Positions 5,605-21,788 are shown, numbered from the stretch's first letter. The stretch: DNA of 21,788 bases from an archaeon (GCA_043813875.1 JBDRKP010000025.1:1-21788), one strand, 5' to 3'. Translations and numbers: made by a program. The notes: a model not told the origin generated them from the sequence alone.

Positions 5605-5623
5605 GCCCGGACAGAGTATTGAT

Positions 5624-6019
5624 ATGACAGAAAAGGCACGGCTCAACGTATATCAATTCAGTAAAGGAAAGAATGTCCCTGAATTCAAAAAGACCCTGAG
5701 CCTGCCCGCCTACCTTTACAGGCAGGATGACTTCGCCATGTTCATCGCAAGAAACTGCGGATGCCATTACTTCCACATAAGCTATCCGGACAGCGAAAAG
5801 AGATCAAGGCGGCTCGCGGACATAAAGATCAAAAGCCACGGCCAAAAGCAGGTTGAATACGCGATACCATATGAGGAAGACCAGCATCGTCTCATCCTCT
5901 TCCTTGAAAGGAACAAGAAAGAGCGCCACCACATGAAAGAGACCACAAGCGCAGGAAGAAAAGCGCCAGATAGATACCATGAAGAACAGCACATAGCGCA
6001 GGAAGACATATACGGATGA
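5624..6019 (+). CDS. Hypothetical small basic protein
   Basis: 131 aa ORF 19 nt after the previous stop, same strand, backbone-like codon usage. Contains a CGCH motif. No family recognised. Confidence 0.5.
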   Translation: MTEKARLNVYQFSKGKNVPEFKKTLSLPAYLYRQDDFAMFIARNCGCHYFHISYPDSEKRSRRLADIKIKSHGQKQVEYAIPYEEDQHRLILFLERNKKERHHMKETTSAGRKAPDRYHEEQHIAQEDIYG

Positions 6020-6100
6020 GTGATCAAAGCAATATAAATGCCCTCAAACAGCAAATGAATAGCCCGCAAACCTGAGAGTCTCATGCAGCAGAGATGCATG

Positions 6101-6128
6101 CTGCACAAAACTTCAAATATTTGTGCAG
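6101..6128. repeat. Perfect 9-bp inverted repeat upstream of dapF
   Basis: CTGCACAAA (6101-6109) / TTTGTGCAG (6120-6128). Confidence 0.7.
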
Positions 6129-6190
6129 TCAATATTCGATAATCATAATGATATGCTTAAAGAAAAAATAGAGAGATATAAGTGATAAAA

Positions 6191-7045
6191 ATGCCCATCA
6201 GATTCACAAAGATGCATGGAATAGGAAATGACTTCATAATCATAAACCGTTTTGAAGAGAACATCGAAGACATCAATATAAAAGACCTCGCCATAAAGAT
6301 GAGCGACCGCCACTTCGGAGCAGGCTCAGATGGTATCATCCTCATCATGCCCCCAGAGTCAAAAGAAAACGACTTCAGATACAGGATATTCAACCCCGAC
6401 GGCTCGGAGGCTGAGATGTGCGGAAACGGCATGAGATGCGCAGCCAGATACGTCTTTGACCACAACCTGACAAAAAAGACAAAACTGCGCTTCGAGACAA
6501 AAGCAGGCATAATAAAACCGGAACTGATCCTTGTGAAAGGCCATGTAAAAGAGGTGCGCGTGGACATGGGCGAACCGGTACTGGAGCGCGAAAAGATCCC
6601 GATGCTCGGACCGGCTGGAAAAGTAATCAACGAAGACCTGAAAGCAGGCAACAAGACAGTAAAAGTCACCTGCGTCTCGATGGGCAACCCCCACTGCATA
6701 ATATTCGTCGACGACACGGGATTCGACGGATTCGAACAGCTGGGAAAGGCGATAGAGACCCACAGATCATTCCCGAAAAAGACAAACGTAGAATTCGTAA
6801 AAGTATTGGACAGAAGCGAGATAGACATGCGCGTCTGGGAGCGCGGCGCAGGTGAGACGCTTGCGTGCGGCACAGGGGCTTGCGCATCAGCAGTCGCATG
6901 CGTCCTGAACAAAAAGACCGACAGGATCGTCACAGTCCACCTGTTGGGCGGCGACCTGAAGATCGAATGGGACAAAGACACCAATCATGTCTTCATGACA
7001 GGGCCTGCAGTTGAGGTTTTTGAGGGCAGATGGAAATGCTCATAA
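6191..7045 (+). CDS. dapF: Diaminopimelate epimerase
   Basis: FTKMHGIGNDF, NPDGSEAEMCGNGMRC, VSMGNPH, TNVEF and ERGAGETLACGTGA motifs, with both catalytic Cys present. ATG 6191 follows a GTGA RBS. Confidence 0.97.
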   Translation: MPIRFTKMHGIGNDFIIINRFEENIEDINIKDLAIKMSDRHFGAGSDGIILIMPPESKENDFRYRIFNPDGSEAEMCGNGMRCAARYVFDHNLTKKTKLRFETKAGIIKPELILVKGHVKEVRVDMGEPVLEREKIPMLGPAGKVINEDLKAGNKTVKVTCVSMGNPHCIIFVDDTGFDGFEQLGKAIETHRSFPKKTNVEFVKVLDRSEIDMRVWERGAGETLACGTGACASAVACVLNKKTDRIVTVHLLGGDLKIEWDKDTNHVFMTGPAVEVFEGRWKCS

Positions 7046-7080
7046 TTCTTAATCCACTAATATTTGACACGAAAACTCAA

Positions 7081-7324
7081 GTATGCAGACCATACATACA
7101 GAAAACAGTTCCCATTATTTCCTTCTTACGACGAGAGTTACCGGAATGTCACCATTACACCCGTATGAATAAAGCATAATGGGAATGGTAACTCTATGTC
7201 TTTACCCCTTACTTCGCTAGGGGTCAATCGCCATTATGAAATTGGTTTGTAGGAACTTACAGGGGCTTTAAGTCTTTCTCGCGGAAAAACAAAAATCGCA
7301 TCACTGCGAGTTCTTAAATCCTCT
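7081..7324. ncRNA. Candidate structured non-coding element, family unknown
   Basis: Dense complementary segments: 7081-85/7091-95, 7109-18/7176-85, 7134-42/7187-95, 7152-57/7177-82, 7204-09/7219-24 and 7261-72/7313-24 (imperfect). Confidence 0.35.
7285..7309 (-). terminator. Hairpin plus U-tract terminator of the 479 aa gene
   Basis: Minus strand reads UCGCA-GUGA-UGCGA (GNRA tetraloop) followed by UUUUUGUUUUU, 16 nt after the stop codon. Confidence 0.65.
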
Positions 7325-7325
7325 T

Positions 7326-8765
7326 TTAGGATTTATGCGAAGCAAATAGCTCATCTGCAAATAGAGTTTCTTTTATAGGGTATAATTTTCCATCTTTGTC
7401 AATTACAGAATATTCTTGCTTTCCAAACAATTCATTTGCAGCTTCAAGTAATTTTTTTCCATGAAAGCTAACATTGCCCTTCTTCTTAGATACAAGTTCG
7501 CATATGTCCCGATATGTATTTTTATCCAAAGCGTCAGCCATTCCCTTGAGATCGTTCATGAATAAAGCACTTAGAGGTCTATTGTTGTGAGATTCGTCAA
7601 GAGACTTGATAAACTCCCGAAGAGTGCCACTGCCACCATTATTCTTTTCGACAAAAGCAGTTTTAATTAATTCAGGACTTGGTATAAGATAGCCATCTTT
7701 ATTTAAGTATCCTACCGGACCCAGTAAATCATTCAAAAGGATGTAAACACCGCCATAAAACTCACCAATCCTGTCTTCACTTATAAGCCTTAGAGGCTTA
7801 TTGCCTATATTGTTGACAGAATTGGCATTTACATCGAGTGCTCCTCCAAATCCGGAAAATATGCTCCTTCGCAAATCAGGCCAATTATAAAGGGATTCAA
7901 CTGGTTGTTTAACATGGGATGAAGAAGCAGGTTTGCTTTTTTCAACCGGCTTTTTGCTGAAGTCTATGCCCATATGATCGCAATAGATTCCACCTTTATC
8001 TGTGAGCACAAACTTATTATTTATATATTTAACCAGATTTCTATTTTCTAGATAGTTAATTGCTTGATCGATATCTTTAGGAGCGCCATCGTAAAGCTCG
8101 TGTTTTTTCAGAACGTTAGAGAGTTTGCCTATTGAATTTATCGGGCCCATTTTCTTCTGTTCGTAGTATAGAAGCGTCTTTAGAACGTCATCCTTGAGCT
8201 TATCGAATTTATTGTAAAATCCTGCGCTTTTTAATGTATCAACACCTTCTTTTGTGGGCCAGAAAAGGTAACTCGCAATCTCTTTATTAGCCAATTCATC
8301 ATAGTAGGCAGATACCTCTACCTTTTCTACGAGCCCGAGTTCAAGTAATTTATCAACCGTACTTTGAACAGCACTTTCAACTTTGCGCCAGCTTGAATCA
8401 TAATTCTTACGTGCATCGAATTCAAATCCGGTTTTGCCGTCTTCTATGCGCAAATTCTCGTATAATTTATCCATTTCTATGGGATTCAAATTATTTAATC
8501 GATCAGAAGTGCTTTGTAAATTTGAATATATTGGTGGCTCTTTGTTTTTTCCACCATTTTTGGAACGCATATTCGTTAATTTCCATGTCAAATCCTGGGT
8601 TGAGCCCACAGTCATATCTTTTCTAATTTTATCCAATACAAGCATGTAGGTCATAACTTCGCCAACATCTGATAAATGATATTTAGCAGCATCATTGGAT
8701 CTATATTTCTCAGAATTATCTCCACTAATCGTTATTTGACCGAGGGGTTTATTTTCACTAGGCAT
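7326..8765 (-). CDS. Hypothetical protein with two predicted winged helix-turn-helix domains
   Basis: 479 aa ORF with a GGTGA RBS. wHTH-like signatures VDKLLELGLVE...FWPTKEG and INYLENRNLV...FVLTDKG. A low-complexity K/S/P linker precedes an unrecognised C-terminal domain. Confidence 0.7.
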   Translation of the reverse strand: MPSENKPLGQITISGDNSEKYRSNDAAKYHLSDVGEVMTYMLVLDKIRKDMTVGSTQDLTWKLTNMRSKNGGKNKEPPIYSNLQSTSDRLNNLNPIEMDKLYENLRIEDGKTGFEFDARKNYDSSWRKVESAVQSTVDKLLELGLVEKVEVSAYYDELANKEIASYLFWPTKEGVDTLKSAGFYNKFDKLKDDVLKTLLYYEQKKMGPINSIGKLSNVLKKHELYDGAPKDIDQAINYLENRNLVKYINNKFVLTDKGGIYCDHMGIDFSKKPVEKSKPASSSHVKQPVESLYNWPDLRRSIFSGFGGALDVNANSVNNIGNKPLRLISEDRIGEFYGGVYILLNDLLGPVGYLNKDGYLIPSPELIKTAFVEKNNGGSGTLREFIKSLDESHNNRPLSALFMNDLKGMADALDKNTYRDICELVSKKKGNVSFHGKKLLEAANELFGKQEYSVIDKDGKLYPIKETLFADELFASHKS

Positions 8766-9005
8766 AGTTTAATCACCATTGAGTTGTTATTGATACGCAT
8801 AATTGCGCTGATATCTTTAAATAGTTTACTTCTCTCAAGTGAATACGATGCAGTTAACAATAAGAATTATGTCCTCTCCTGAATTAATGGTAGTCTCCCC
8901 ATTAAGTACTGATAAATACTCTGCAAACATGAACATATTTAAATATTCGTCTTAAATTAATCATATATAAGTTGTAACGTCTAAAAAACTCAATTTGGTG
9001 TTTAA
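8766..9005. promoter_or_regulatory. AT-rich divergent promoter region
   Basis: TTTAAATA-type boxes near 8816 and 8938, perfect palindrome ATATTTAAATAT (8935-8946), inverted repeat TTAATGG/CCATTAA (8884-8905). Confidence 0.5.
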
Positions 9006-11066
9006 ATGGTTGACATAAACATATTTGACATCGGTATGCCAGGATATCTAGAAAAAGGTACCGAACAATTGCACAAGACTCATACGGATTACAAGGTAAG
9101 TTTTCAGCAAATTAAAGATGCAAACGGCTATCCCAAGCAAAGAATAGATATTTCGAGATTATACGGAGAAATAACAAAGAAAATACTTTATGGCGAGATA
9201 TCTGCTTCTAAAAGAACACCATCTGAACTAGAAAGCGTATTTAGAGATTCAAACGGAGAGGTTGTATTCAGCGAAGTTAATGAGACACATACAACTGAAG
9301 CAGTCGGCTTTCTTAATCATCTTAAATGGTATGATGCAATTCTCAGAAATCACCCTTATGTTTCAGGCTATTCAGAAGAGGAAGCGATGTATCTTAACCC
9401 CACGCCTAACGAAGTGGTTATCCGAAATGTAGCAAACTATGGCAAGTCACCATTTGGCGAATACGGAATAGATACAGTCACCAAAAAGAAACGCACGTGG
9501 TTTGGGCCAAACAAGACAAGAATATCCTTTAGAGGCAAAAACCAGGCCAATGAAACTGTAGCACAAATCTGGAACCGTCCAGATCACATCGAGATAACAG
9601 ACCACACATATAAATTGATTGTACCAACCAGAGAGCTTTTTGAAGGATCAAAGTGGATAAAAGATCATCAAAAATTGTATAGCCTTCTTGTAGAATCGAA
9701 ACTTGGCGACGTACCATTTCCCCTCTTTTTGATTCTTAAGTCCTCCATTAACACAGGCATGGAAGCTTATCTCACGAAAGGCGGCAAGACAGATAAGCTG
9801 GTGGATTCACATCGTGATTTCTGTAATAAACACCAAATAGTGATGGGAAGAGCCACAGATTACATATCAGCTATCAACGATAATCTCAAATATGCAGTCG
9901 ACATGGAAGGCGAGTTGATAAATGCTACAAAATTTAACCCCATATATATAAAAAGAGCCATAGTGGACAACTTGCTAGGCGGAAAGCCTATAAGGTTCCA
10001 TGGCAAGCACTATGGCTTAAATACACTCACTCCAGCTGTAAAAAAGATAAATATTAAAGACCTCAACGAGGATGGCAGTTTGGGGGAGAATAAAGCAGAA
10101 TTCGAATTTTATCCATGGATATCATACAAAGATTTTATAAGCACTTTAAGCTTAAACAAGCCAAAAGAATATCTGTTTGACTTCAAGGATCTCGGATCTG
10201 AAGAAGGAAGAGATAAGCTATTCACCTATTTAGATGATAAAGGGAGCTGGCTATATTATCTGCGCTCGCGTGAGCAGACAAAAGATGAATGGCTGGAAAA
10301 TGCAAATTTCAGATTAGACGATAAAAATAACCGTCTTATTGTTACAAAAGATAAGACAAGAAAAGGAAGCTGGATTGATAGAAAAATCCGTAAAAAAGAC
10401 ACTATAACGACGAAAGATTATATCGGCACTTTTGAGATAAAAGATGACTCTCTCTTTTACTGCGGCAAAAAAAGAATCCCATTCAAGGTTGCAGACATAG
10501 AAAAGGTTAAGGATGAAAATAAGCAGACATACGGCAAAAAAGAGCCAGAAGAGAGTATAAAAGTATATACAGACGGCAAAGAAGAAGTAGGAGACATCAT
10601 AATCGAGAGAAAACTAGAAGAGAAGAGCACCAATTTATATCTGCTATTCAGGAAGAGCCACTTTGAAGATGGTCCTTTCTTATTTAGAGGAGCTATTGCG
10701 GCAATGGCTAATATGCAAGGACCATTAAGATTAAAGACAGATGAATGGAACTATCGCAGCGTGTATCACTTACCTGTTCCGCTCGAGTTGACTTTTGACC
10801 TTCTTACGATGATATTATATTCCGGAGACCCCGCGGTTTACGGCGAACGCAAGGTTGACATCAATAAAGTGTATGGAGGTCACAAACTTCAACCGTTCAA
10901 CGGTACAGGAAAAGTCGTGGACGAAAATATGACCCCTGATACTATCTATTTCTTAAGCCAGATATTCAAAGATAAAGTCACAGAAGAAGACATTGCCCCA
11001 TTCGTGAAATGGCTTGAACCGGATAAATCAGATATCGCTCCTAAGGTCGCGGCTCAGGCAGCGTAA
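9006..11066 (+). CDS. Large soluble hypothetical protein
   Basis: 686 aa uninterrupted ORF in AT-rich DNA with a GGTG RBS. No signal peptide, TM segment or recognisable catalytic motif. Confidence 0.8.
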   Translation: MVDINIFDIGMPGYLEKGTEQLHKTHTDYKVSFQQIKDANGYPKQRIDISRLYGEITKKILYGEISASKRTPSELESVFRDSNGEVVFSEVNETHTTEAVGFLNHLKWYDAILRNHPYVSGYSEEEAMYLNPTPNEVVIRNVANYGKSPFGEYGIDTVTKKKRTWFGPNKTRISFRGKNQANETVAQIWNRPDHIEITDHTYKLIVPTRELFEGSKWIKDHQKLYSLLVESKLGDVPFPLFLILKSSINTGMEAYLTKGGKTDKLVDSHRDFCNKHQIVMGRATDYISAINDNLKYAVDMEGELINATKFNPIYIKRAIVDNLLGGKPIRFHGKHYGLNTLTPAVKKINIKDLNEDGSLGENKAEFEFYPWISYKDFISTLSLNKPKEYLFDFKDLGSEEGRDKLFTYLDDKGSWLYYLRSREQTKDEWLENANFRLDDKNNRLIVTKDKTRKGSWIDRKIRKKDTITTKDYIGTFEIKDDSLFYCGKKRIPFKVADIEKVKDENKQTYGKKEPEESIKVYTDGKEEVGDIIIERKLEEKSTNLYLLFRKSHFEDGPFLFRGAIAAMANMQGPLRLKTDEWNYRSVYHLPVPLELTFDLLTMILYSGDPAVYGERKVDINKVYGGHKLQPFNGTGKVVDENMTPDTIYFLSQIFKDKVTEEDIAPFVKWLEPDKSDIAPKVAAQAA

Positions 11067-11202
11067 ATTGAATAATCGTCACACTTACGGATTCTGAAAT
11101 TCCATCGCAGCATTCATATCGATTTTTATAATATAACAATCAGCTTTTATTCATGGGCTATCATCAGAAGAACCATAGCAATATATCAATATATCGACAT
11201 AC

Positions 11203-11251
11203 AAAAAAACAAAAAAAAGAAAAGAATGAAGAAGAGCCATTTGCTGGCTCT
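11203..11251 (-). terminator. Terminator of the T4SS-like operon
   Basis: AGAGCCA/TGGCTCT stem (11233-11251), 10 nt after the ATPase stop, followed on the minus strand by long T tracts. Confidence 0.7.
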
Positions 11252-11261
11252 CTTTTCACTC

Positions 11262-13991
11262 TCAGTCTTGGAGGGCATTTTTGTCCCCCAAGAGTCCCGG
11301 AATTGCCTCAACAATCTTGCTTGCATGCAAGATTGTATTTGGCACCTCCAGATTCCGATCTCTTGTAACGGCAACAGTCCTGCCGTTCCAGGAACCGATT
11401 TTAGCTATAACCGATTCCAAATCAGTCTCCTCAGGCACATACAACCTGATGATGTGGTGTCCCTTTTTGGACACTTTGATCCATCCTCCGGATGGAAGTA
11501 TCTTTATATCGTAGAGATACTTATTCTCTCCAAGGTATTTTTCAACCTCTTCGAGAATTAAAAATAGCAGGACACCATTTTCCCTGTTTTCGACAGGCTC
11601 GTGGATGAACTGCAATTGTTCACCGCCCACCAGTTCTGTCGATCTGGTGATCTGGTGCCCCTGGGCGAGTAGATCCGCCTTCCTCTCCGACGATATGTCT
11701 GAGATGCGGAAGAACCGGTTGCTTCTCTCCTCTATCTTAGGAGGCTGGAAACCGTCCAGATTTCCAAGAACCAGCTTCTGTACCATCGGCGATATGCCGA
11801 GATGAACCAGAACTGATCCAACACGCTTCTTCCAAAGAAGGGCAACTCCTGTCATGCCCTCTTTTCCAATGTCGATATCGTTCTCGATACCGATGGCATC
11901 ATAAACCTCACGGCTCACATTGCTGTAAATGAGAGCCGTACTCAAGTTCTTGAGTACGTCATAAAGTTTACGATCAATGAGATCCTGCGGGTTCTGCACC
12001 AGCAGACCCACATCCATATCGAACTTTCGCGCACCGCGGAAGTTTGATCTGACAATCTCCCCTATCGTTGGGGAACCCAACGTCTCATCCCCTGGAAGAA
12101 GATCCTGGGCTTCCTCCAAGTATAGTTCACAGGGATTTGTCGAACTTCTTATCTGTTCGATCAACATCACTATGTTTACCAATGCAATCTTTGACCTCAT
12201 GGAAGACATCTTCCAGAGGTTGTACGAAACATACTGGTTCTGCTCGAATACAGGACCAGAATCGTCCCCGAACATCCAGGGAGCACCGTCCCAGAAACCG
12301 AGTCGGTCACCCAAGTCACTATCCTTGATCTTTTCAAGCTCACTTACGAGCCCTGAAAAGGTGATGCATTGTTTTCTCAGTTGCATCACTTTCTTTGTCT
12401 CACCCTTGGTGAGACGACCAAGGATGGAAAAGAGATCCTTCTCGAACTCTTTTTGAGTCTCCTTGTCCTTGAAGACTCGGAAGATGTTTATCCGTGACGA
12501 TGTTTTAGGATCGTCACTGAAATCAAAGATCGTCAGTTCTTGAGCCTTTAAATACCCCTCATCTATGGCTCGCTTCATAGCCAAGAAGAAGGAATTCTTA
12601 GTCTGACCACTGCCCACATGGTCAATGAGTGCAACCCTCTTTAATTTCTCGAGGATTGTATTCAAAATCATTATCGCGGTCCCGACAGACTTGCCGGAAC
12701 CGGACTCGCCCGCAATCAGGCACCGTCCCATCTTTGAGAGATAGACGGCGAAGCCCGCAGGATCATGGCCAATCGGATAGCCATGAAGGAATGCGTCATC
12801 AGCATTTATGTACATCAATGACAACGCCTCCTCTACCTGGTCCACAGGTAGAGTGAAAACAGATTCCTTTTCCAATGTCCCCTGTGTTAAGGAGAACATA
12901 TTACTAAGTGCACTCGCTTGATTATCAGGTGCCATTAGATTGAATCCGGCAATCTGTGCCCATTCGGTCAGATTGCTTACAGACCTTTTAAGGCTGTCGT
13001 AATCGCCTGCGTTGACGACTACGATTACTCGCGTTCCGAGAAGTATCAACCCAGCGGAAACGCTCTTTTCAAGCTGGTCAATAATTTGCTGCTTATAATC
13101 AGCAATATTGTCCGCTTGTTCAGAGCGATTCTCTTTGCCCTCCTTTCTTTTTCTGGACTTCCTGTCTTCGTCCAGAACTGTTAGGGCAATGTCAGTCCTG
13201 AAGACATCAGGGGTTATGTATAAATTAACCCTTGCTGACTTCAGGTGTTTTATAAGCTCGCCCAATGAGCCTCCCGGCAGCTCCTGAGCTACCAGGACTT
13301 TGAAATATCCGCCTCCTGCAGACGGATATGGTCCGTCCCTTATTTGGAGGGTATTCTTGCCCTCCTTGAGCCTTATGTTCACAGGGGGCTTCCAAGGAAT
13401 CTGTTCTATCCGAACAAATCCTTTCAGCCGCAGCATAGCTGACTGAACATCCGCTGACGTCCCTGTCAGCAGGATTATGTTCATTGGAGACTTCTTGAAG
13501 TCTTCAATTGACTTCAAATAGTCAACAATGAACCTCTGGTGTTCCAAACCGGCGATTTTGAGTACTTCTCGAAGTACTCTTTTTAAGCGATGATATGGCT
13601 CCTCAGTCCATATCTCGCTAAAGGTCATAGTAACGTCTATGACCCTCAGGGCTTTGAATACTCCCACTAAGTCAATCCCCTTTTGATTTAGTGGGGTTAT
13701 CCGATAGGCACGCTGTACCTTTGTGCCTACCTTCAGGTCTTCCCCTTTAAGGATGACCTGTTGATCCCGACTTTTCTTGAAAAAGTCGGTGATTGCATTC
13801 CCTCCCCCCCTTTGATATGGGAGGAACAGGAAAAAGTATCCCAACCACAGGCCTGCGAGGCCTATAGCAAGGATAAAAAACGCTTGCCCAAAATAATTGG
13901 CAAGCATTTGTCCAATAACGAGGATAATCGCCGTCCCGAACCAGGCGGCGGTATTCTCATTTTTTTCTCTTGATCCCAACGAGAGTTTCAT
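11262..13991 (-). CDS. Membrane-anchored VirB4/CedB/HerA-FtsK superfamily ATPase
   Basis: Two N-terminal TM helices; Walker A GESGSGKS (12687-12710); VALID strand; Walker B LYLEEAQ; arginine-finger/sensor motif GARKFDMDVGLLVQNP; long VirB4-like N-terminal half. Confidence 0.8.
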   Translation of the reverse strand: MKLSLGSREKNENTAAWFGTAIILVIGQMLANYFGQAFFILAIGLAGLWLGYFFLFLPYQRGGGNAITDFFKKSRDQQVILKGEDLKVGTKVQRAYRITPLNQKGIDLVGVFKALRVIDVTMTFSEIWTEEPYHRLKRVLREVLKIAGLEHQRFIVDYLKSIEDFKKSPMNIILLTGTSADVQSAMLRLKGFVRIEQIPWKPPVNIRLKEGKNTLQIRDGPYPSAGGGYFKVLVAQELPGGSLGELIKHLKSARVNLYITPDVFRTDIALTVLDEDRKSRKRKEGKENRSEQADNIADYKQQIIDQLEKSVSAGLILLGTRVIVVVNAGDYDSLKRSVSNLTEWAQIAGFNLMAPDNQASALSNMFSLTQGTLEKESVFTLPVDQVEEALSLMYINADDAFLHGYPIGHDPAGFAVYLSKMGRCLIAGESGSGKSVGTAIMILNTILEKLKRVALIDHVGSGQTKNSFFLAMKRAIDEGYLKAQELTIFDFSDDPKTSSRINIFRVFKDKETQKEFEKDLFSILGRLTKGETKKVMQLRKQCITFSGLVSELEKIKDSDLGDRLGFWDGAPWMFGDDSGPVFEQNQYVSYNLWKMSSMRSKIALVNIVMLIEQIRSSTNPCELYLEEAQDLLPGDETLGSPTIGEIVRSNFRGARKFDMDVGLLVQNPQDLIDRKLYDVLKNLSTALIYSNVSREVYDAIGIENDIDIGKEGMTGVALLWKKRVGSVLVHLGISPMVQKLVLGNLDGFQPPKIEERSNRFFRISDISSERKADLLAQGHQITRSTELVGGEQLQFIHEPVENRENGVLLFLILEEVEKYLGENKYLYDIKILPSGGWIKVSKKGHHIIRLYVPEETDLESVIAKIGSWNGRTVAVTRDRNLEVPNTILHASKIVEAIPGLLGDKNALQD

Positions 13992-13995
13992 ACTC

Positions 13996-14832
13996 TCACC
14001 TCCTCCATGTTCTTATTCTTTTCATTAGTGACCCCATATTTTTCGTATTTGGGATCACGAATACCTCTATCACGTCAGCCTTTACTTTCGGCGAATCTAA
14101 GACCGACGAAAACACCATATACATGACTATTACCTGCGTACAGATATAGCCCAGGGCGATGATGAATCGTGAGATGATGTCACTCCCCATCCCTGAAGAG
14201 GCGAAGAGAGTCATCATCAGCAATCCTGTATTTATTATTGCCAATCCCAGATCGGCAACTAGGATTTTAATAATAAAATCTCCTTTTTCCTTAAAGGAGA
14301 CCATTGGGATCATATAATAGATCCCCGCGATACACAGTAAATATCCGCCAATCAGGCCGATGAATACCTGGATCGCCATCCCGATTATAAATAAAATAAT
14401 CGGGAGAGACCCTATAAGTAGGGCTATAGATCCACCTGCCAAAAGGTGGAACAATGCAGAGACTGGATTGTCGAATGTCGACAACATCACAGTTACGGCT
14501 GCTGTTGTAACCATGAGAACGTCCCTGAATATAAAGAGTCCTGTTTTCATTAACAGGAACCCTAGAAACAGGTACCGGTAGTTAAACTTTACCTCTCCCC
14601 TTTCTTTAAAGAGGATGTAAAATCCTGCGTATATTATGGCGCAAAGCGCCAAAACGCACAGAGTCATGCTCCATTGCGCCTGTACGTCCGGGGGTGGTAC
14701 TTCCGGCACCCCCCAGAACAAAACCTTTTCGAGAATGTCAACGAAAAGGCGGATGAGTGCCCCTATGGTGGCATCATATACCACTCCCAGGGCACCAATT
14801 ATGCCGTCAACTATAATATTACCTTCGGCCAT
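13996..14832 (-). CDS. VirB6/CedA-like polytopic membrane protein
   Basis: 278 aa with about 6-7 hydrophobic segments and an amphipathic N-terminus, directly upstream of the VirB4-like gene. Family call rests on topology and context. Confidence 0.6.
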   Translation of the reverse strand: MAEGNIIVDGIIGALGVVYDATIGALIRLFVDILEKVLFWGVPEVPPPDVQAQWSMTLCVLALCAIIYAGFYILFKERGEVKFNYRYLFLGFLLMKTGLFIFRDVLMVTTAAVTVMLSTFDNPVSALFHLLAGGSIALLIGSLPIILFIIGMAIQVFIGLIGGYLLCIAGIYYMIPMVSFKEKGDFIIKILVADLGLAIINTGLLMMTLFASSGMGSDIISRFIIALGYICTQVIVMYMVFSSVLDSPKVKADVIEVFVIPNTKNMGSLMKRIRTWRR

Positions 14833-14833
14833 A

Positions 14834-15877
14834 TTACCACCTCACTACTTTCTTAAACGAAAAATTCAAAATCCCCATCACGATGAGAATAGCAATCACT
14901 ATCCTCCACCCGTTATCGGAATTTCTAGAAGTGACTTGTATCCTCTCGATACTTATCACTTTTTCTTCCCCGGCAGGGGACCTGACGGAAATGTTTGTTA
15001 CGTTCACTCCCCGAGGAACGTAAAAAATTCCGTTCAAATACGTTATCAGCGTGCTATTGCACCTGATAACCGGAGGAAGATCAAACGCTTCCCCATAATA
15101 CAGCCCTCTATTGTCTCTCTTTAAGAGGAATGTATCTGGTATCAGTGAAACGGTTATGTTCCCACTGACATTTGTCATGTTGAACACATGACCCGGCCCA
15201 AAGGAGTCCATCCTTATTGAGCCGATATCAGTCCCGTTGACTGATATCTCCATGGCATTTTGATATTCTGCCATGGTGACGTTTGCATACCTTGAAAACT
15301 GCTGCGGTTTTTCAAGGCTGTCGACCAATGGTCCTGTGTATGAGAGCAACACTTTAGCCAGATACTCATAACAGTCCCCGTCGTAATAGTGACACCTTTT
15401 TTCAAAGGTGTGACCTTTGGCTTCAATAGTCACACTAAGTGTGACATTGCCATCGTCTACGAAGACCTCTTTTTTTGTCATCGTACACGAATCGACTATT
15501 ACCCGGGCATAGGTATACTGGTCTTCGCCAGACTGGTATACGGGGTATGCCCCATAGTTAAAGCGTAGACCATTTTCATAATCCACACTTTCCGGGATAT
15601 AATGTGTCCCGGAAATGTTTATCCGGGGAGTATACCCGAACAAGGTCAGGTATATCCCGAGTTTTCCATTATCTTGCGATTTGGAAAAATCAGCTCTTGG
15701 TGTAGAGCCAATGTAGATACTATTATTCTCCATAATATCTACAATCGTGACCTCATTTTTCACGATTTCTTCAATCGTTTTATTGATAAGGTCATCGGAC
15801 TCATCATCCGCTGTACTTGTACTGATTGTTAGAATCAATACGAAGACGAGTATTAAGGCCATGACTCTAACTCGCAT
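14834..15877 (-). CDS. Secreted beta-rich protein with signal peptide and C-terminal membrane anchor
   Basis: Signal-like N-terminus (MRVRVMALILVFVLILTISTSTA), many N-x-S/T sequons, CHYYDGDC loop, C-terminal TM followed by KKVVRW. Confidence 0.75.
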   Translation of the reverse strand: MRVRVMALILVFVLILTISTSTADDESDDLINKTIEEIVKNEVTIVDIMENNSIYIGSTPRADFSKSQDNGKLGIYLTLFGYTPRINISGTHYIPESVDYENGLRFNYGAYPVYQSGEDQYTYARVIVDSCTMTKKEVFVDDGNVTLSVTIEAKGHTFEKRCHYYDGDCYEYLAKVLLSYTGPLVDSLEKPQQFSRYANVTMAEYQNAMEISVNGTDIGSIRMDSFGPGHVFNMTNVSGNITVSLIPDTFLLKRDNRGLYYGEAFDLPPVIRCNSTLITYLNGIFYVPRGVNVTNISVRSPAGEEKVISIERIQVTSRNSDNGWRIVIAILIVMGILNFSFKKVVRW

Positions 15878-15880
15878 GGC

Positions 15881-16207
15881 TCACCTCACCAGAAGAACGA
15901 TAAAGAAGTCAACGATGAGGCCAACTAGCCCTATCACAATTGATAGGACAATAATCGCCTTATTATCGGCGATTATTTGATCCGTCGCTTTCTTATCAAC
16001 TAGCCCGTTGAAAAACGTTCCCAACAGGATTGATATGGACAGCAATACTGCCCATATTCCGAGATTTGCTTTCGCAATTACCTCGAAATTATCAATCTTT
16101 TCAGATTGCCGTGGTGTGAGAGGACCCCCCATCGCTCCTGTGACAGATGCAATTCCTATAGCCATGACTATAAGAATTAAGATCACGTTCACGGTTATCC
16201 GGGACAT
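15881..16207 (-). CDS. Pilin-like (VirB2/CedA1 topology) small membrane protein 3
   Basis: 108 aa: signal peptide, hydrophobic helix, charged loop (DKKATDQ), second hydrophobic helix. Confidence 0.6.
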   Translation of the reverse strand: MSRITVNVILILIVMAIGIASVTGAMGGPLTPRQSEKIDNFEVIAKANLGIWAVLLSISILLGTFFNGLVDKKATDQIIADNKAIIVLSIVIGLVGLIVDFFIVLLVR

Positions 16208-16209
16208 TT

Positions 16210-16551
16210 CTATGCTCCCGGGACCGTTGTTCCCTGTATGGCTAAATAGAACTTACCTATAATTTCAATCAAGCCCACAATAATACAAATAAGAACGAGA
16301 TACTTACTCATTCTTTCAATTTTCTCTTTTGGGGACAAATCCTTCCCGTTGTCATCCCCAAATAGGGATAATGGTATATCCATAAAGTAACAGTAAGCCG
16401 CTGCTACGATTACTGCTACCTGCGCAAGAACTTTCAGAATCATTACTGATTCTAAATATTGTTCCGCGCGTTCTGCCCCTACCACCTCACCGCTTACGGT
16501 GTTGATGGTTACGAAAAGGAGAAGAAGCAATAGACAGTGTCTACGCTTCAT
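16210..16551 (-). CDS. Pilin-like (VirB2/CedA1 topology) small membrane protein 2
   Basis: 113 aa: signal peptide, hydrophobic helix, charged loop (DDNGKDLSPKEKIER), hydrophobic helix. GGAG RBS. Confidence 0.6.
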   Translation of the reverse strand: MKRRHCLLLLLLFVTINTVSGEVVGAERAEQYLESVMILKVLAQVAVIVAAAYCYFMDIPLSLFGDDNGKDLSPKEKIERMSKYLVLICIIVGLIEIIGKFYLAIQGTTVPGA

Positions 16552-16561
16552 GATTTACTCC

Positions 16562-16903
16562 TTATTTGAGGATCGCAAGGGCAAGGTTTAACAGTTGCTG
16601 GGCTAAGCCAATTAGGATTAGGATTAGCAACACAATCTTTGCCTTGCTAATTACTGTATTCTCCTCTTCCTCCTTCTCCTTCTTGTTCTTTTGCAGCACT
16701 GACAATGCTGCATACACTATCAAGAACAGTGCCGCCAAATACGGGTATATACTCGTAATGATAGCCAAGCCGGAGTCCCAGAACCCCATGCCGACCGCCT
16801 TTCCAGCGGCCTGAATCGCAGCCTTATCAGCGGCGACTACTTGGACTGTGAGCCCAAGTAAGAGTCCCATTAGGGACAACAATTTTCTTACAATTCGGTT
16901 CAT
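16562..16903 (-). CDS. Pilin-like (VirB2/CedA1 topology) small membrane protein 1
   Basis: 113 aa from ATG 16903 (GGAGG RBS): signal peptide ending VVAA, Ala/Gly-rich helix, TM, KNKKEKEEEE loop, TM. Confidence 0.65.
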   Translation of the reverse strand: MNRIVRKLLSLMGLLLGLTVQVVAADKAAIQAAGKAVGMGFWDSGLAIITSIYPYLAALFLIVYAALSVLQKNKKEKEEEENTVISKAKIVLLILILIGLAQQLLNLALAILK

Positions 16904-17032
16904 ATTTCCTCCCCCCCTGTTAGATGCCAGGGGAGATAGCTTTTTCAACAACATTCCAGGCATCATCCCTTTGGAGAGGTCTGCCTATTTTTTATGAGCG
17001 CTCTAGCTGCGCTCTATGTTTGCGTTTCTTTA

Positions 17033-18454
17033 TTACCTCCTCATTCTCCTAAAAGACATAATAAGGATAAGGATCGCCAGTACAAGCATGGCGGAAAGAA
17101 ACCCGAATCCAGGCGTTTCTTTTTTACCCTCTTCTTGAGTCTCCGTCTCCTCTTCAGAGATATTCTCCTCTACGGGAGAAATTCCCTCTTTCTGGTCCTG
17201 CTGTTCAACCTCTTTTTCAGATGGTTTCTCCAAGACCTCAAAAGAGTAGGTTTTCTCCGGGCACTGCTTTTTATCGCAGGCCTTTGCAACGACCTTATAA
17301 GTCGCTGCTCTTCTTGGGATAAAGGTAATATTGCCCTTATCACCAATAACCCGCCCTGTTGTGTAGCGGGTTTCATCGTTGTAATCTCCATAGATTTTTA
17401 CGTCTATGAAGCTTACTTGACGCCCATCGTCATAAGTCCAAAGACTTATATTGACGGGCTCACCGGCAACAGCTGGTGTTGTTCTATTGATGATTATTAG
17501 GGGAGGGTCATCAATAGTATCATCCACCAGAAACTCGGTAGTTCCGGTAGCGATGACGCTCCCGTTGTATGTCACATTTGTTGTGACATTATACGGACCT
17601 TCGTCATCAAAGGACCATGTGAACTCTACCCCTTCTGCGGAGTCAGTATGACCTCGTTCGATGTCAATGACTGACGTCGTATACTTACAAACGTCATCAT
17701 GACACGGATGCTTCAAGCGGAACTTGATATCAGATCCTTCAGAAACATAATCAGGATCATATTCAATCTCCAGGTCTTTCGAGCCCTGGACCTTAACTCC
17801 GAAATTCACCGAACTTGCCTGCCCGGCTTCATCCGTCGCCGTCACAAGGACATCGTATGTCCCTTGTTTTGCGGCAAACAATGAGAAAGTGGTATTGTCA
17901 CCATCCTCCTCAATTTCCCCGGTCTCAAGACCCACTGGAGAAACTTTGACTGAAAAGGTCGTCTCGTCGTCCTTTTCAGCCTCCTCTTTGTTCCAGACGA
18001 TAATCTGGACCGAGGCAAACAAAGGAACAGTGAGTTCCCTCTCTGACTCTTTCTCTGAGTCACTGAACGGATCAGAATATTTCATGACCCCTTCAATCTC
18101 CGGAGCGGGATTTTTATATACATAAAAATCCCTGCTAATGAGGTCGTTTCCATACGACCCCCCAGGGCCAGTCTCAACGTAAAGGCTGACATTGTAGTCA
18201 CCCTCTTTAAAGGGTCTTACAAAAGAGCATTGCGTGGAGACCGCTTCCCCGTTGATTCCCCAGATGCATTTGTGTTCGTAATCGAACACCTCCAGAGAAT
18301 TATTCGCGCTCAGCATAACCGGAGTCCCTGCAAGGATTCCTTCTGACGGATCTGGATCAAGATCCATCACCGCTTCTGGCGGCGGAACCGCAGAAGCGAT
18401 ATTTATCATCATTATTGCAATCACGGTCGTCGTGATTGTGATGATTTTATGCAT
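17033..18454 (-). CDS. PGF-CTERM cell-surface protein with tandem PKD/Ig-like domains
   Basis: Signal peptide; repeated PKD-like strands (F.EGDYNVSLYV, GTYDVLVTATD, F..EGPYNVT, ATYKVVAKACD); Glu-rich stalk; TPGF + TM + RRMRR tail; GGAGGTG RBS. Confidence 0.88.
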   Translation of the reverse strand: MHKIITITTTVIAIMMINIASAVPPPEAVMDLDPDPSEGILAGTPVMLSANNSLEVFDYEHKCIWGINGEAVSTQCSFVRPFKEGDYNVSLYVETGPGGSYGNDLISRDFYVYKNPAPEIEGVMKYSDPFSDSEKESERELTVPLFASVQIIVWNKEEAEKDDETTFSVKVSPVGLETGEIEEDGDNTTFSLFAAKQGTYDVLVTATDEAGQASSVNFGVKVQGSKDLEIEYDPDYVSEGSDIKFRLKHPCHDDVCKYTTSVIDIERGHTDSAEGVEFTWSFDDEGPYNVTTNVTYNGSVIATGTTEFLVDDTIDDPPLIIINRTTPAVAGEPVNISLWTYDDGRQVSFIDVKIYGDYNDETRYTTGRVIGDKGNITFIPRRAATYKVVAKACDKKQCPEKTYSFEVLEKPSEKEVEQQDQKEGISPVEENISEEETETQEEGKKETPGFGFLSAMLVLAILILIMSFRRMRR

Positions 18455-18469
18455 ATTTCAACACCTCCC

Positions 18470-18503
18470 GCTGCTAACTCATGAAAGGTTAACAGCATTT
18501 ATA
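18470..18503 (-). promoter_or_regulatory. TATA-like box with adjacent inverted repeat ahead of the operon
   Basis: Minus strand TATAAAT (18497-18503), then GCTGTTAAC-N9-GTTAGCAGC (18470-18496), then GGGAGGTG. Confidence 0.5.
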
Positions 18504-18788
18504 CACATAAATACAATTCCTCCTTCCCCTTTCTGAGAAGAAGAATTGCCCAGAATAACTCAAAAGACCCCAAGGACAAGAAAAAGACACCTCAAGCGCA
18601 TAGAATCCTCTAACCAAGAAGTCCTACCTGTCTTCGCTTCCAACCCTTGCCTTTCACAGCTAAGGTTAAAAGTTTAGACAGCGCTTCAGGTATTTGGACA
18701 GTCCATAAGAACTAATCCAAACTTTTTATGCCTCGAAAGGTCTTTCATTGAATTCTGGAACATAAACTGTTGTTTCTTTTCATGCGCA

Positions 18789-20960
18789 TCAGACAGCAAC
18801 GCCTTTAGGCGGCTTGTTGATGAGTTCCGTTGTCACATCACGCGGCGCGTCATAATGGAAAAACTCGATACGCGCGAAGCTTTTCCTCTCAAGAAGCGCC
18901 TGTGCGCTGATGACAAATATGACGACATTCGGGTTCTTGTGGCCGCAATCAGCAGCGAACCGCGAAAATCCCTGTATGACAGCATTCTTCACCTTATCAG
19001 AAGAGCAGATGACATAGGAGCGTGCGCCGACAGTCTTCACATTCTCATAGATCTTATCATAATCAGTCGTATTCTCAAAATAAAGGCTCACAGCCGAACC
19101 CTCCTTCTCGATGACACAGACAGAATCATTCACCTTGGAAGAGACTTTGAACCCTCGCTCCTTCAAAAAATCCATATAAGGATAGACATTCATCTTCTCA
19201 GTGACCGGCTTGATCGACCTGAAACGCACGTCAAACGCCCGCCTTCCCTTGGATTTCAGGAAATAATAATGCGACTTCTGCTTGTACACCTTGCCTTCCT
19301 TCATGCCGACAAACCCGCGCTCGACAAGATCCGTCACCTGCTCCTTGAACACAGTCCCCGAGCAGCCGATCTCCTTGTATATCATGGCAGCGCTATACGC
19401 CTTCGCAGCCCCGATCATCTCGATGATATCCCACTGCCTGTCCGTCAGGCTAGAGACATCCACCCTATCATCAATCACCATAGCTGCCGTTTTTTGAGTA
19501 TCATCAGTCTTTACAGTCCTGGCATCCACCACTGCAGCCTTCAAAGCCTTATCGCCAAGAATATCAAGCAGTTTCTCATCATTCACATTCCCCTTCTTCA
19601 CCTTCACATGTGGGAACTCCACAAGAAACGCGCTCGAAAAAGCAAGCCTCCTGCATAGCATGAACCCATGCCCTACAGGCAGTTTCCTTATATATTGCCC
19701 GTCCTCGTCATAATCGATGCCAAGCATATTGCTCGCGTCATGGATATCAGAATTCTGCTTAGAATCAAGCCCGAGATTCATATAGACATGCGTACTCGTA
19801 TTACCTAAAGCCGGATAGCTGATCATAGACGGATGCTGGTCCGTATATATGATACCGACGCCAAGCTCACGGATCTCCCTGAAAATCAGATCAATCACAC
19901 TCTCAGTGCCCATCTTCGCCGTCTTCTCCCTATTCACAAGATGATGCGCCTCCTCAAGCACGATAACAGCATTAAGGTCCTCGCGCACACCCTGCAAAAG
20001 CAGCCAGTCCCGCAGCCACTGAAGTATGATCTCTATAATGAACGTACGGTCATTAGGCGACAAAGAATCAAGCTCAAGCACAGTGATAGATCCAGTCTCA
20101 AGAAACGTGGACGGCAGAACGCCGATATCAACATCAAAAATTTTGCCCGTATCCCTGTAATTAAGAGACTCGATAGGCCTCTCGGCAGTCGCGATCCAGT
20201 TCCTCTCCCTCGCAGAGACCTTCGAATCGCCATGCGCATATACCCAATTGCGCAGATCCTTTATTTTCGGCATCTTACTCGCTCCGTCATAGATATCATC
20301 AAGCGCCTTAAGAACAACATGCTTACCGCCACCCATAAGCCAGTAAGAATGATCGAATATCTCAGCAAACTCCTTGGACCACTGCGTTATGCTCACTCCT
20401 TTCGGAGGGACAAGCGGATTGAACCTGAACGGCGCCACCTCCCTGCCCACAGTATAGACATTCATGCGCCCCTTGAATTCAGGCATCTCTATCATGTCGC
20501 GATAATTCATCTTGGAAAAATCAAAAATTATTATAGGCACATCCTGCTTTGCAAGCATCGTAATCATATGCTGTATCAGGTTAGTCTTTCCGTATCCTGA
20601 AGAGCCGAATACCCCCATATGCGTCAGAAGATGCTTTTTATCATACATGAACGGATACAATTTCCTCTTGCCGTAAAGCACATGGCCCATCTCAAGATCT
20701 CCGGCATTGCACTCATCGCGCGACGGCGGCTCAAGAAGTATGGATTTGCGAAGATCCTCGTCCTTGAACGCAGTAGCCTTAAGCCCGTCAATGATAGACA
20801 TGATCCTGCCCCGAGTCTCCTCATCACCCAAAAGATACGCCCTCTCAAGCTTGCGGGCATTCACGGCATCAATAATAGGGCTCAGCCTGCTGATCTCATC
20901 CGCAATCTCACGGGAACCAAGCGTTCTTCCCCTTGCAATGAACGGCCTTTTGTATTCCAT
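18789..20960 (-). CDS. HerA/DUF87-type P-loop ATPase with C-terminal winged-helix domain
   Basis: THMGVFGSSGYGKT (Walker A), IIIFDFSK, FRFNPL, VIVLEEAHH (Walker B), REIRELGVGIIYTDQHPS; wHTH LTDRQWDII...LVERGFV...YFLKSKG. Confidence 0.88.
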   Translation of the reverse strand: MEYKRPFIARGRTLGSREIADEISRLSPIIDAVNARKLERAYLLGDEETRGRIMSIIDGLKATAFKDEDLRKSILLEPPSRDECNAGDLEMGHVLYGKRKLYPFMYDKKHLLTHMGVFGSSGYGKTNLIQHMITMLAKQDVPIIIFDFSKMNYRDMIEMPEFKGRMNVYTVGREVAPFRFNPLVPPKGVSITQWSKEFAEIFDHSYWLMGGGKHVVLKALDDIYDGASKMPKIKDLRNWVYAHGDSKVSARERNWIATAERPIESLNYRDTGKIFDVDIGVLPSTFLETGSITVLELDSLSPNDRTFIIEIILQWLRDWLLLQGVREDLNAVIVLEEAHHLVNREKTAKMGTESVIDLIFREIRELGVGIIYTDQHPSMISYPALGNTSTHVYMNLGLDSKQNSDIHDASNMLGIDYDEDGQYIRKLPVGHGFMLCRRLAFSSAFLVEFPHVKVKKGNVNDEKLLDILGDKALKAAVVDARTVKTDDTQKTAAMVIDDRVDVSSLTDRQWDIIEMIGAAKAYSAAMIYKEIGCSGTVFKEQVTDLVERGFVGMKEGKVYKQKSHYYFLKSKGRRAFDVRFRSIKPVTEKMNVYPYMDFLKERGFKVSSKVNDSVCVIEKEGSAVSLYFENTTDYDKIYENVKTVGARSYVICSSDKVKNAVIQGFSRFAADCGHKNPNVVIFVISAQALLERKSFARIEFFHYDAPRDVTTELINKPPKGVAV

Positions 20961-21593
20961 CTAAATCGCCCCTGCGCCATCAAAAATCGATGCTATCTTC
21001 TTCTCAGAATGATACTCCTCACGGAGCGCCCTAAGCTCAGTCGTCAAAGCGATATTATCATGGAAACGCTGTATGAGCTCCTTTCTTTTCTGCTGGCGGA
21101 GCATGGAAATATGAAGCTTGATGCTTCTTAAGTCATCAAAATCAATGCATTTCGTAGCGAACAGTTCCTTGTCCTGTATATCGCCATCAATATCCTTGAT
21201 AATCTCCTCATGTATCTGGTTACGAAGCTCAACCGCCTTGCTGATCTCAGCAATCCTCTCTTCAAGAAATCCCACACGGTCAAAAAGATTGCCTATTATC
21301 TGCGAACCTGCGCATCGAAGCTGCCTGACCTCCTCAGGATCTTCCCTCGGAACAGCTTCCCTCTGCATGATCTTTATAGAATCAGGCACAATTTCAGGCT
21401 TTTCATCATCATCTATCTCGGCAACCGGACGATTGGCAATCTTATAGAGGAGCTCTTCTTTAGACGCATCCTTATACGTCCTTTCGATATTTTCTCCTTC
21501 ATAATCCTGCTTCATCTGCTCAGGAGTCTTGTGTGTCATATACTCCTTAGACCGTATATAATCGCGTTTTTTCTCCTTGTACATTATAACCAT
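20961..21593 (-). CDS. Charged coiled-coil hypothetical protein
   Basis: 210 aa, E/K/R-rich with a heptad pattern. Its stop directly abuts the HerA start. The true start may be ATG 21584. Confidence 0.75.
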   Translation of the reverse strand: MVIMYKEKKRDYIRSKEYMTHKTPEQMKQDYEGENIERTYKDASKEELLYKIANRPVAEIDDDEKPEIVPDSIKIMQREAVPREDPEEVRQLRCAGSQIIGNLFDRVGFLEERIAEISKAVELRNQIHEEIIKDIDGDIQDKELFATKCIDFDDLRSIKLHISMLRQQKRKELIQRFHDNIALTTELRALREEYHSEKKIASIFDGAGAI

Positions 21594-21788
21594 TCCTTAC
21601 TCATCATCTAAATGGGCGCGAAGTAAAGACACCCCAAAGGATTAGAACTTCAAAGTAACAATAACGATGTTTCTACCAACAAGTAACTTTATAAATGTTA
21701 CGCCAACGCCTATAATAATAGGGCAATGCCTGTGCATGGAGAAAACACATTGTAAATACATATTGTACATAATAGATAATACATCAGA

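Follow-up and report, generated by a model that had tools for sequence, protein, structure and literature searches.

What does a compact operon of seven genes for surface, membrane and motor proteins do for the archaeon that carries it? The operon lies on the window, by which we mean the whole stretch of DNA analysed here, a complete contig (C25) of 21,788 bp from an archaeal genome (G000; 1.64 Mb in 90 contigs, 91.5% complete). ORF calling and translation place seven co-oriented open reading frames (ORFs) on the minus strand, spanning 18454-11262 and encoding, in operon order, proteins of 473, 134, 113, 108, 347, 278 and 909 amino acids (aa). Our best reading is that the operon is an extreme variant of the monoderm/archaeal type IV secretion system (T4SS) in which only the motor ATPase is still recognisable. 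We put the probability that it encodes a compact, extremely diverged, VirB4-driven T4SS-like apparatus of this kind at about 70%; the apparatus is probably a contact pilus and translocon.

The seven genes form one tight transcription unit. The last six are separated by 10, 2, 3, 1 and 4 nt, and the first is set off from the second by 66 nt, or by 129 nt if gene 2 starts at Met22. Upstream lies a putative spacer/promoter region of 334 nt (18455..18788, minus strand), in which a TATA-like box can be read at about 18510-18497. A Shine-Dalgarno sequence, GGAGGTG, stands 7 nt ahead of the first ATG, that of the 473-aa protein, and the upstream HerA-like unit described below ends in a terminator-like hairpin at 18545-18518. 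The operon terminator (11198..11252, minus strand) is a GAGAGCC-loop-GGCTCTT hairpin at 11252-11232 followed by T-rich runs (T8, T7); since it is called on the plus strand as well, it serves both convergent genes, the operon and a 686-aa gene. An earlier note on this DNA had described such a cluster, and the ORF calls bear out its coordinates, order, orientation and the 1-10-nt spacing of its last six genes, just as the hairpin and T runs bear out its terminator. A hydropathy scan, from which the topologies of all seven proteins were taken, agrees with those claimed there: surface, pilin-like, anchored and polytopic proteins and a membrane-anchored ATPase. Pfam, NCBIfam and PHROGs scans of the seven proteins gave nothing above cut-off except a PKD domain, PHROGs returning 0 families, and tblastn against plasmids found just 7 weak matches, all with E >= 0.1.

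The evidence for a secretion motor comes from the last gene, which encodes a VirB4-class ATPase of 909 aa (11262..13991, minus strand), assigned through structure neighbours, hhalign and Pfam. The protein consists of a two-transmembrane (TM) N-terminal hairpin (residues 18-59 in the hydropathy scan), a VirB4-type N-domain, a P-loop domain of the FtsK/HerA fold, with Walker A at residue 428 and Walker B (LYLEEAQ) at about 623, and a C-terminal extension of ~170 aa. The ESM Atlas holds a model of exactly this sequence (pTM 0.53), and all 10 of the structure rows listed for it are VirB4/TraC/TraE/CD1110-type or PrgI-VirB4 fusion clusters, with TM-scores of 0.60-0.65 over 645-728 aligned residues. 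Two of these rows, both PrgI-VirB4 fusions, align from query residue 1-2 and thus cover the TM hairpin.

Profile comparison points the same way. The three-member ATPase family (the operon protein and two relatives) was compared by hhalign with eight Pfam-verified archaeal T4SS ATPases (P-loop_TraG/AAA_10; P-loop_TraG E 1e-25 to 6e-32) and scored 94.8% against this set (E 5e-8) over 546 columns (query 227-822), with the Walker A, Walker B and RKF...Q motifs in register. Other groups matched this family less well: canonical HerA reached 59.8%, across 93 columns, an AAA_10 group of 500-aa proteins 28.5%, and the family of the neighbouring HerA-like protein 5.8%. AAA_10 is the best Pfam family for 3/3 members (best E 3.2e-8), and NCBIfam VirB4-type models match the operon ATPase at E 0.003-0.006. 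The difference between 94.8% to P-loop_TraG and at most 60% to the HerA groups favours a secretion motor over the non-secretion HerA that the earlier note had held up against it. Hence, the ATPase is VirB4-class, fused to a membrane hairpin in the VirB3/PrgI-like position, as in PrgI(VirB3)-VirB4 fusions.

This motor is very rare. A word-indexed search of 5.8 billion clusters, in which 8000 candidates were scored, returned two relatives besides the ATPase itself (67% and 62% identity), and a full phmmer/HMMER pass over 1.84 billion representative proteins returned only its own cluster. The family was not found in 60 relatives, and neither genome-contig nor metagenome-contig collections, nor a single-protein HerA query, yielded a locus carrying it. 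By profile it is present in 1/42 genomes of the phylum; a second profile match, in genome G017, is weak and proved to be a canonical HerA among housekeeping genes. Of 401 archaeal genomes sampled, 15 encode recognisable AAA_10 proteins (E <= 1e-10), and of the 42 in the phylum none does. The 278-aa polytopic protein has exactly two relatives, P0125 (58%) and P0126 (55%), which lie on contigs of 110,258 and 43,498 bp, the same sizes as those bearing the ATPase relatives (P0002 and P0003). At least these two genes therefore travel together in three genomes. The ATPase relative on the 110-kb contig shares that contig with an orthologue (P0008) of the HerA-like protein encoded upstream of the operon, a hint that a second species has the same gene neighbourhood.

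The genes preceding the motor would supply its pilus and channel. Three of them have VirB2-like topology (signal, two hydrophobic helices, short charged loop). The 134-aa protein (16562..16966, minus strand) has a signal peptide, TM1, the loop QKNKKEKEEEE and TM2, a VirB2-type pilin topology, and is probably really 113 aa long, starting at Met22. The 113-aa (16210..16551, minus strand) and 108-aa (15881..16207, minus strand) proteins each have a signal peptide and two TM helices, the former matching 0 Pfam families and the latter no family above cut-off. None of the three matches PF18895 or PF04956 in a Pfam scan, and hhalign detects no mutual similarity among them. AlphaFold2 (AF2) models the 134-aa protein from Met22 as three helices with a pLDDT of 63, and Foldseek finds 0 matches for this model in the PDB at E <= 0.001. 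A VirB5/VirB6 stalk entry does appear at rank 27 of its VIA-align list; it stands among unrelated rows and is not evidence.

Next in order is a secreted protein of 347 aa (14834..15877, minus strand) with a signal, a C-terminal TM anchor, many N-x-S/T sequons and no family; we can only guess that it is a stalk, a VirB5/VirB8-like component or a wall-spanning part. The 278-aa protein (13996..14832, minus strand) has ~6-7 TM segments and sits beside VirB4 in the slot of VirB6/PrgH/CedA-like proteins, which makes it a candidate translocon or pilus platform. Compared by hhalign with 16 T4SS-neighbour/operon proteins, its family scored 3.1% or less with every one. The pilin-like and VirB6-like assignments are drawn from topology and gene order only and are best regarded as putative.

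The first gene encodes a PKD surface protein of 473 aa (17033..18454, minus strand) composed of a signal peptide, PKD/Ig-like domains, an acidic linker and a PGF-type tail, its TM segments falling at 3-25 and 446-471. The Pfam PKD match (E 5.2e-8) is above cut-off. The tail reads ..TPGFGF-TM-RRMRR, that is, a PGF motif, a TM helix and a basic tail, and a PG[FL]-TM-basic arrangement is found in 3/2045 genome ORFs of at least 150 aa, this protein among them. The earlier note had named PGF-CTERM and archaeosortase A as its sorting system, which is half borne out, in that the motif is present. The PGF-CTERM model, which we take to belong to NCBIfam, does not match the protein at E <= 0.1 in the NCBIfam scan (just Heimdall-CTERM does, at E 0.026), and two archaeosortase-family genes on contig C53, which pass the family signature TIGR04178, are far under the ArtB/ArtC/ArtE cut-offs, have no ArtA match and are not ArtA equivalogs. 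Judged on its residues the tail is PGF-like, and the protein is a candidate adhesin.

Several results weigh against a T4SS. Homology links no more than one of the seven proteins to T4SS, and that one incompletely: alone, the operon ATPase reaches 22 bits for Pfam AAA_10, below the 27.5 cut-off, and phmmer against the PDB sees only FtsK, around Walker A. The VirB4 reference set itself scores 97-98% against HerA groups, members of this superfamily detecting one another, so that what speaks for VirB4 is how its score and coverage compare with those of HerA. The quality of the Atlas model is moderate, as its pTM indicates; an AF2 model of the ATPase from a 3-sequence alignment is unreliable (pLDDT 33.2, pTM 0.21); and the N-terminal hairpin has no sequence match to PrgI-domain proteins (hhalign 0.3%). 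The phylogeny by which the earlier note had proposed to place the ATPase could be built, with 23 rows after two canonical HerA and L121_588 were dropped for an unmatched Walker A pattern, but the tree of ATPase domains has the form of an unresolved star whose branches are long, one of them 3.3 substitutions, and gives no grouping. As for the partners, VIA-align of the 134-aa model gives generic helical hairpins (best Z 8.2), the 278-aa family profile matches no Pfam family and no PDB sequence, and in hhalign comparisons of the six partner proteins with partners from archaeal T4SS loci 0/90 pairs exceeded 20%. Of the T4SS-like module proposed earlier, then, the membrane-anchored VirB4-class ATPase stands on the Atlas, hhalign and AAA_10 results, and the pilin and VirB6 folds are candidates, Foldseek, VIA-align, hhalign and PDB/Pfam profiles having given no match to either.

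How might such an apparatus work? The ATPase would form a membrane-docked hexamer on the 278-aa polytopic platform and would extract one or more of the signal-peptide-processed two-TM proteins from the membrane, these being polymerised into a conjugative-type pilus or a short conduit. The 347-aa anchored glycoprotein would span the envelope, and the PKD protein, fixed to the surface via its PGF-type tail, would bind the partner cell. The outcome would be contact-dependent uptake or exchange of macromolecules: DNA, if Ced/Ted are the guide, or material from a host, the proposal made for Patescibacteria. Since no coupling ATPase, relaxase or integrase lies alongside the operon, export of its own DNA is unlikely; uptake or exchange on cell contact would be the likeliest and most economical function. 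That this diverged T4SS, with its three putative pilins, its PGF-anchored PKD adhesin candidate and its motor of VirB3-VirB4 fusion type, gives a host-dependent small-genome archaeon a conduit into another cell for acquiring DNA or metabolites is a tentative extension that we think rather unlikely.

The strongest rival explanation, though an unlikely one, sees the segment around the operon as part of a mobile element or as its remains: the operon would be the transfer module of a conjugative element that has integrated, or of a plasmid remnant, and the DNA-processing genes would be unrecognisable (the orphan genes at 7326-11066, for example), lost or off the contig. In its favour, the operon is rare and accessory. 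Co-resident DNA next to it (7046..11261), not shown to be part of the machine, is 4.2 kb long and has 37% G+C against 43.8% for the genome. It carries two divergent orphan genes between dapF and the operon, at 8765-7326 (minus strand, 479 aa) and 9006-11066 (plus strand, 686 aa). The 686-aa protein has no family and no PDB match and occurs in 1/42 genomes of the phylum; the 479-aa protein has weak winged helix-turn-helix (wHTH) matches, and only its C-terminal third matches proteins, in 4 other genomes. In 4/4 same-genus loci analysed, the gene after dapF has its counterpart on another contig of this genome (C59), and the genes that follow the HerA-like gene in genome G003 lie on contig C28 of this one. 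These breaks on the dapF side and the HerA side leave 7046-18788 (11.7 kb) non-syntenic on both sides. With the ATPase in 1/42 genomes and synteny broken, the operon behaves as accessory DNA and not as a conserved lineage trait, and its description in the earlier note as chromosomal and domesticated is doubtful, given the broken synteny with four same-genus genomes. It also fits a mobile origin that known archaeal conjugative plasmids are likewise without recognisable relaxases in the accessible text of PMC9905601 and PMC12857230.

The hallmarks of an element are nevertheless missing. The contig has no tRNA, no flanking att-like direct repeats and no integrase, Phage_integrase matches in the genome being confined to C65, C55 and C40. 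In its tetranucleotide profile the operon is ordinary for the genome (87th percentile of 322 windows), the rest of which yielded neither a second copy nor related DNA, and the 110-kb contig with the ATPase relative also holds the chromosomal HerA-like gene. Nor was a coupling ATPase found, whereas Sulfolobus plasmids and pT33-3 have VirD4-like proteins, according to the available part of PMC12857230. A whole-genome search with PF02534 and PF10412 returned only HerA on C75, the HerA-like neighbour of the operon and, at 19.1 bits and thus under the cut-off, a frame of 857 aa on C61. The C75 protein, sole match of T4SS-DNA_transf, is a canonical HerA beside pilin-like genes and not a coupling ATPase. 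PF03432 (Relaxase) and PF02486 (Rep_trans) had 0 genome matches, other MOB families not having been searched; the relaxase, coupling and integrase negatives hold for a 91.5%-complete genome. The earlier note's statement that no relaxase or integrase accompanies the module agrees with this, as none was detected on the contig, and no coupling protein was detected either. A separate observation concerns the C75 locus (L129 3136-8071), where seven small proteins are encoded beside the canonical HerA, six of them with one N-terminal hydrophobic segment and type IV pilin-like.

Public sequencing runs bear on the integrity of the segment. Four runs, belonging to three studies, gave contig fragments (200-500 nt, depth 2-5) that match every part of 5500-21788; no RNA run was listed among the holders of this DNA. 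Within the operon, several fragments run across gene junctions, but the right-hand junction at 18455-18788 is spanned by none, and a chimeric join there is thus neither shown nor excluded. In one soil-metagenome run (X4), a single contig at depth 3.6 contains the 3' end of the HerA-like gene and then diverges fully from 18728 operon-ward, which suggests a related strain with different DNA downstream of the HerA-like gene.

Less probable again is a domesticated importer of the Ced/Ted type, taking up conspecific chromosomal DNA for repair as in Sulfolobales and Thermoproteales. The minimal parts are the same (small proteins with two TM helices, a polytopic one, an ATPase of the VirB4/HerA class anchored by TM segments, and no relaxase), and a 'DNA import protein CedB' cluster stands at rank 5 of an Atlas feature search with a score of 0.92. 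Against this, no NCBIfam Ced model matches any of the seven proteins at E <= 0.1, and the operon is therefore not a member of Ced. The specific relationship to Ced/Ted that the earlier note had drawn finds no other footing: the only Ced match, to CedD (NF053655), comes from the HerA-like gene next door and reaches 50 bits where the cut-off is 600, and profiles of the ATPase and 278-aa families retrieved neither pilus nor Ted entries from the PDB. Moreover, the structure neighbours of the ATPase are full-length VirB4 proteins with the N-domain, not split CedB/CedD, the operon is found in 1/42 genomes and is not lineage-conserved, unlike Ced in Sulfolobales, and a three-protein signal-peptide array with a dedicated adhesin is absent from the descriptions of Ced/Ted in the accessible text of PMC9905601 and PMC11868833.

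Least likely is that there is no secretion machine at all, the operon being an FtsK/HerA-superfamily defence module, a virus-derived cassette or a system for exporting and anchoring the PKD protein: PDB sequence searches do see FtsK only, the six partner proteins have no known family, the top Atlas feature cluster is 67% viral and the best PADLOC match of the ATPase is mad8 (E 8e-10, residues 405-679), but mad8 matches the neighbouring HerA-like protein better (7e-16) and so reports only the shared P-loop fold, none of the seven proteins has a PHROG family, the full-length structural matches include the VirB4 N-domain, and gene order and topologies mirror those of bona fide archaeal T4SS loci.

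Directly upstream of the operon lies a separate unit (18789..21593, minus strand), encoding a 210-aa coiled-coil protein and a 723-aa DUF87/HerA-like ATPase, which is not part of the operon. The ATPase gene, at 20960-18789 on the same strand, had been overlooked in the earlier note. Its product has a Pfam DUF87 match (E 1.9e-10), a C-terminal MarR-like wHTH and no TM helices, and also weakly matches the mad8, DndH and anti-phage HerA models. The family is large, with 407 proteins at E <= 0.001 and 45-50% identity across phyla. The 210-aa partner is present in 73/78 related loci, and 0/78 have a copy of an operon gene or of either orphan gene. The pair of 210-aa and ~700-aa proteins recurs in many small-genome archaeal lineages at 42-77% identity, beside varied housekeeping genes (loci L010-L087). 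It is a separate chromosomal two-gene module. As a coupling ATPase for the operon the 723-aa protein was considered and ruled out, having no TM helices and belonging to a separate module in 78 loci.

Read as a diverged T4SS, the operon would matter for several reasons. Few archaeal machines of the T4SS type have been described (those of Sulfolobus plasmids and of pT33-3, Ced and Ted), and the operon would extend this kind to a small-genome, probably symbiotic lineage. It would show how far a VirB4 system can drift with gene order and topology kept, and divergence this extreme suggests that sequence surveys with CONJScan-type profiles undercount archaeal T4SSs. Its parts list is very small, seven genes with no outer-membrane or wall-hydrolase parts, and gives a way into the question of what a pilus and translocon require at the least. 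Should the conduit proposal be true, the operon would be an archaeal counterpart of the T4SS reported to be essential for epibiotic growth in Patescibacteria, and would join Ced and Ted as a third minimal T4SS lineage of archaea, independent of both. It also invites the question of whether tiny archaea use machines of this sort to make contact with their partners. Because the T4SS claim rests mainly on one protein, the value of the locus is that of a well-defined target and not of a settled discovery.

Comparison with known systems places the operon among T4SSs of the monoderm/archaeal kind. The best structural neighbours of its ATPase come from MPF-FATA T4SSs (pCF10 PrgH/PrgI/PrgJ, CD1110 family). 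Like these, the operon has a TM hairpin before the VirB4 N-domain and P-loop, a polytopic neighbour of VirB4 and no outer-membrane parts. Unlike them, it has no sequence match to the PrgI, PrgH or TrbL/VirB6 families, and nothing in it was recognised as a coupling protein, a relaxase, a VirB1-like hydrolase or a VirB8-like protein; it has, in addition, three signal-peptide proteins of pilin topology and a PGF-anchored adhesin candidate.

The same order and topology are seen in T4SS loci of small-genome archaea (L114-L121), which comprise T4SS_pilin, a polytopic protein, PrgI/TraC_N and a P-loop_TraG ATPase. L118, for example, encodes a 133-aa T4SS_pilin (E 1.8e-8), a polytopic protein, PrgI/TraC_N and VirB4, and L117 a 125-aa protein with a signal and two TM helices, a 63-aa protein, an 835-aa polytopic protein and a 1002-aa TM-VirB4 fusion. 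Both L116 and L117 fuse the TM hairpin to the ATPase, as the operon does. These loci are recognised by Pfam (P-loop_TraG at E 1e-25 to 6e-32, PrgI and T4SS_pilin), whereas the operon proteins are not.

Some features of these and related loci deserve mention in their own right. In two verified archaeal T4SS loci (L114 1327-3150 and L115 7798-9612), the post-VirB4 gene encodes a ~605-aa protein. The L114 copy has an Mrr-type restriction-endonuclease domain and a C-terminal PAP2-like membrane domain, the L115 copy not having been scanned, and an SPFH/Band 7 protein is encoded between VirB4 and the ~605-aa gene in L114. The ~605-aa protein is a possible DNA-processing partner of relaxase-less archaeal T4SSs. 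At L125 (10199-16738), an AAA_10 ATPase of ~500 aa, with Walker A at about residue 70, follows six membrane proteins, four of which are polytopic and alike in size (360-464 aa); ATPases of this type, from 6 loci, score 99.9% against VirB4 profiles and are without the N-domain. In another archaeon, a T4SS-like locus has five tandem paralogues of ~285-315 aa at a distance of 1 kb (L121 15056-19464); four share an N-terminal motif at their start, which the first only resembles.

Archaeal conjugative plasmids (the pNOB8 family and pT33-3) have a VirB4-like ATPase and membrane proteins and no recognisable relaxase, and they carry a VirD4-like coupling ATPase on replicons of 25-103 kb, as the available text of PMC12857230 describes them. 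In contrast to these, no coupling ATPase, replicon or integration function was found with the operon. The nearest published case is that of nanohaloarchaea, in which VirB4/TraG-like ATPases are encoded beside giant surface proteins (PMC10266531, accessible portion). No small-genome archaeal T4SS-like operon of this composition was found in the accessible text of the literature, the papers' supplementary VirB4 distribution tables being outside its scope.

Patescibacteria, ultrasmall host-dependent cells, have chromosomal, relaxase-poor T4SSs with arrays of VirB2-like pilins, for which a role other than conjugation is proposed; these systems are widespread, conserved in the phylum and often near the origin (PMC12102498, in the part available). 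The operon differs in being archaeal and in occurring in 1/42 genomes of its phylum. With Ced of Sulfolobales and Ted of Thermoproteales, so far as the accessible text of PMC9905601 and PMC11868833 describes them, it shares pilin-like two-TM proteins, a polytopic VirB6-like protein, a VirB4/HerA-class ATPase, the absence of a relaxase and an archaeal envelope. It departs from both in being accessory and not lineage-conserved and in its dedicated adhesin candidate, and from Ced in having an unsplit ATPase of VirB4 type in place of the split CedB/CedD (PMC11868833, same portion). The cleavable-looking signal peptides of its small proteins resemble TedC rather than CedA1, going by the available description in PMC9905601. 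By analogy, the operon would work like Ced/Ted and like the T4SS of Patescibacteria.

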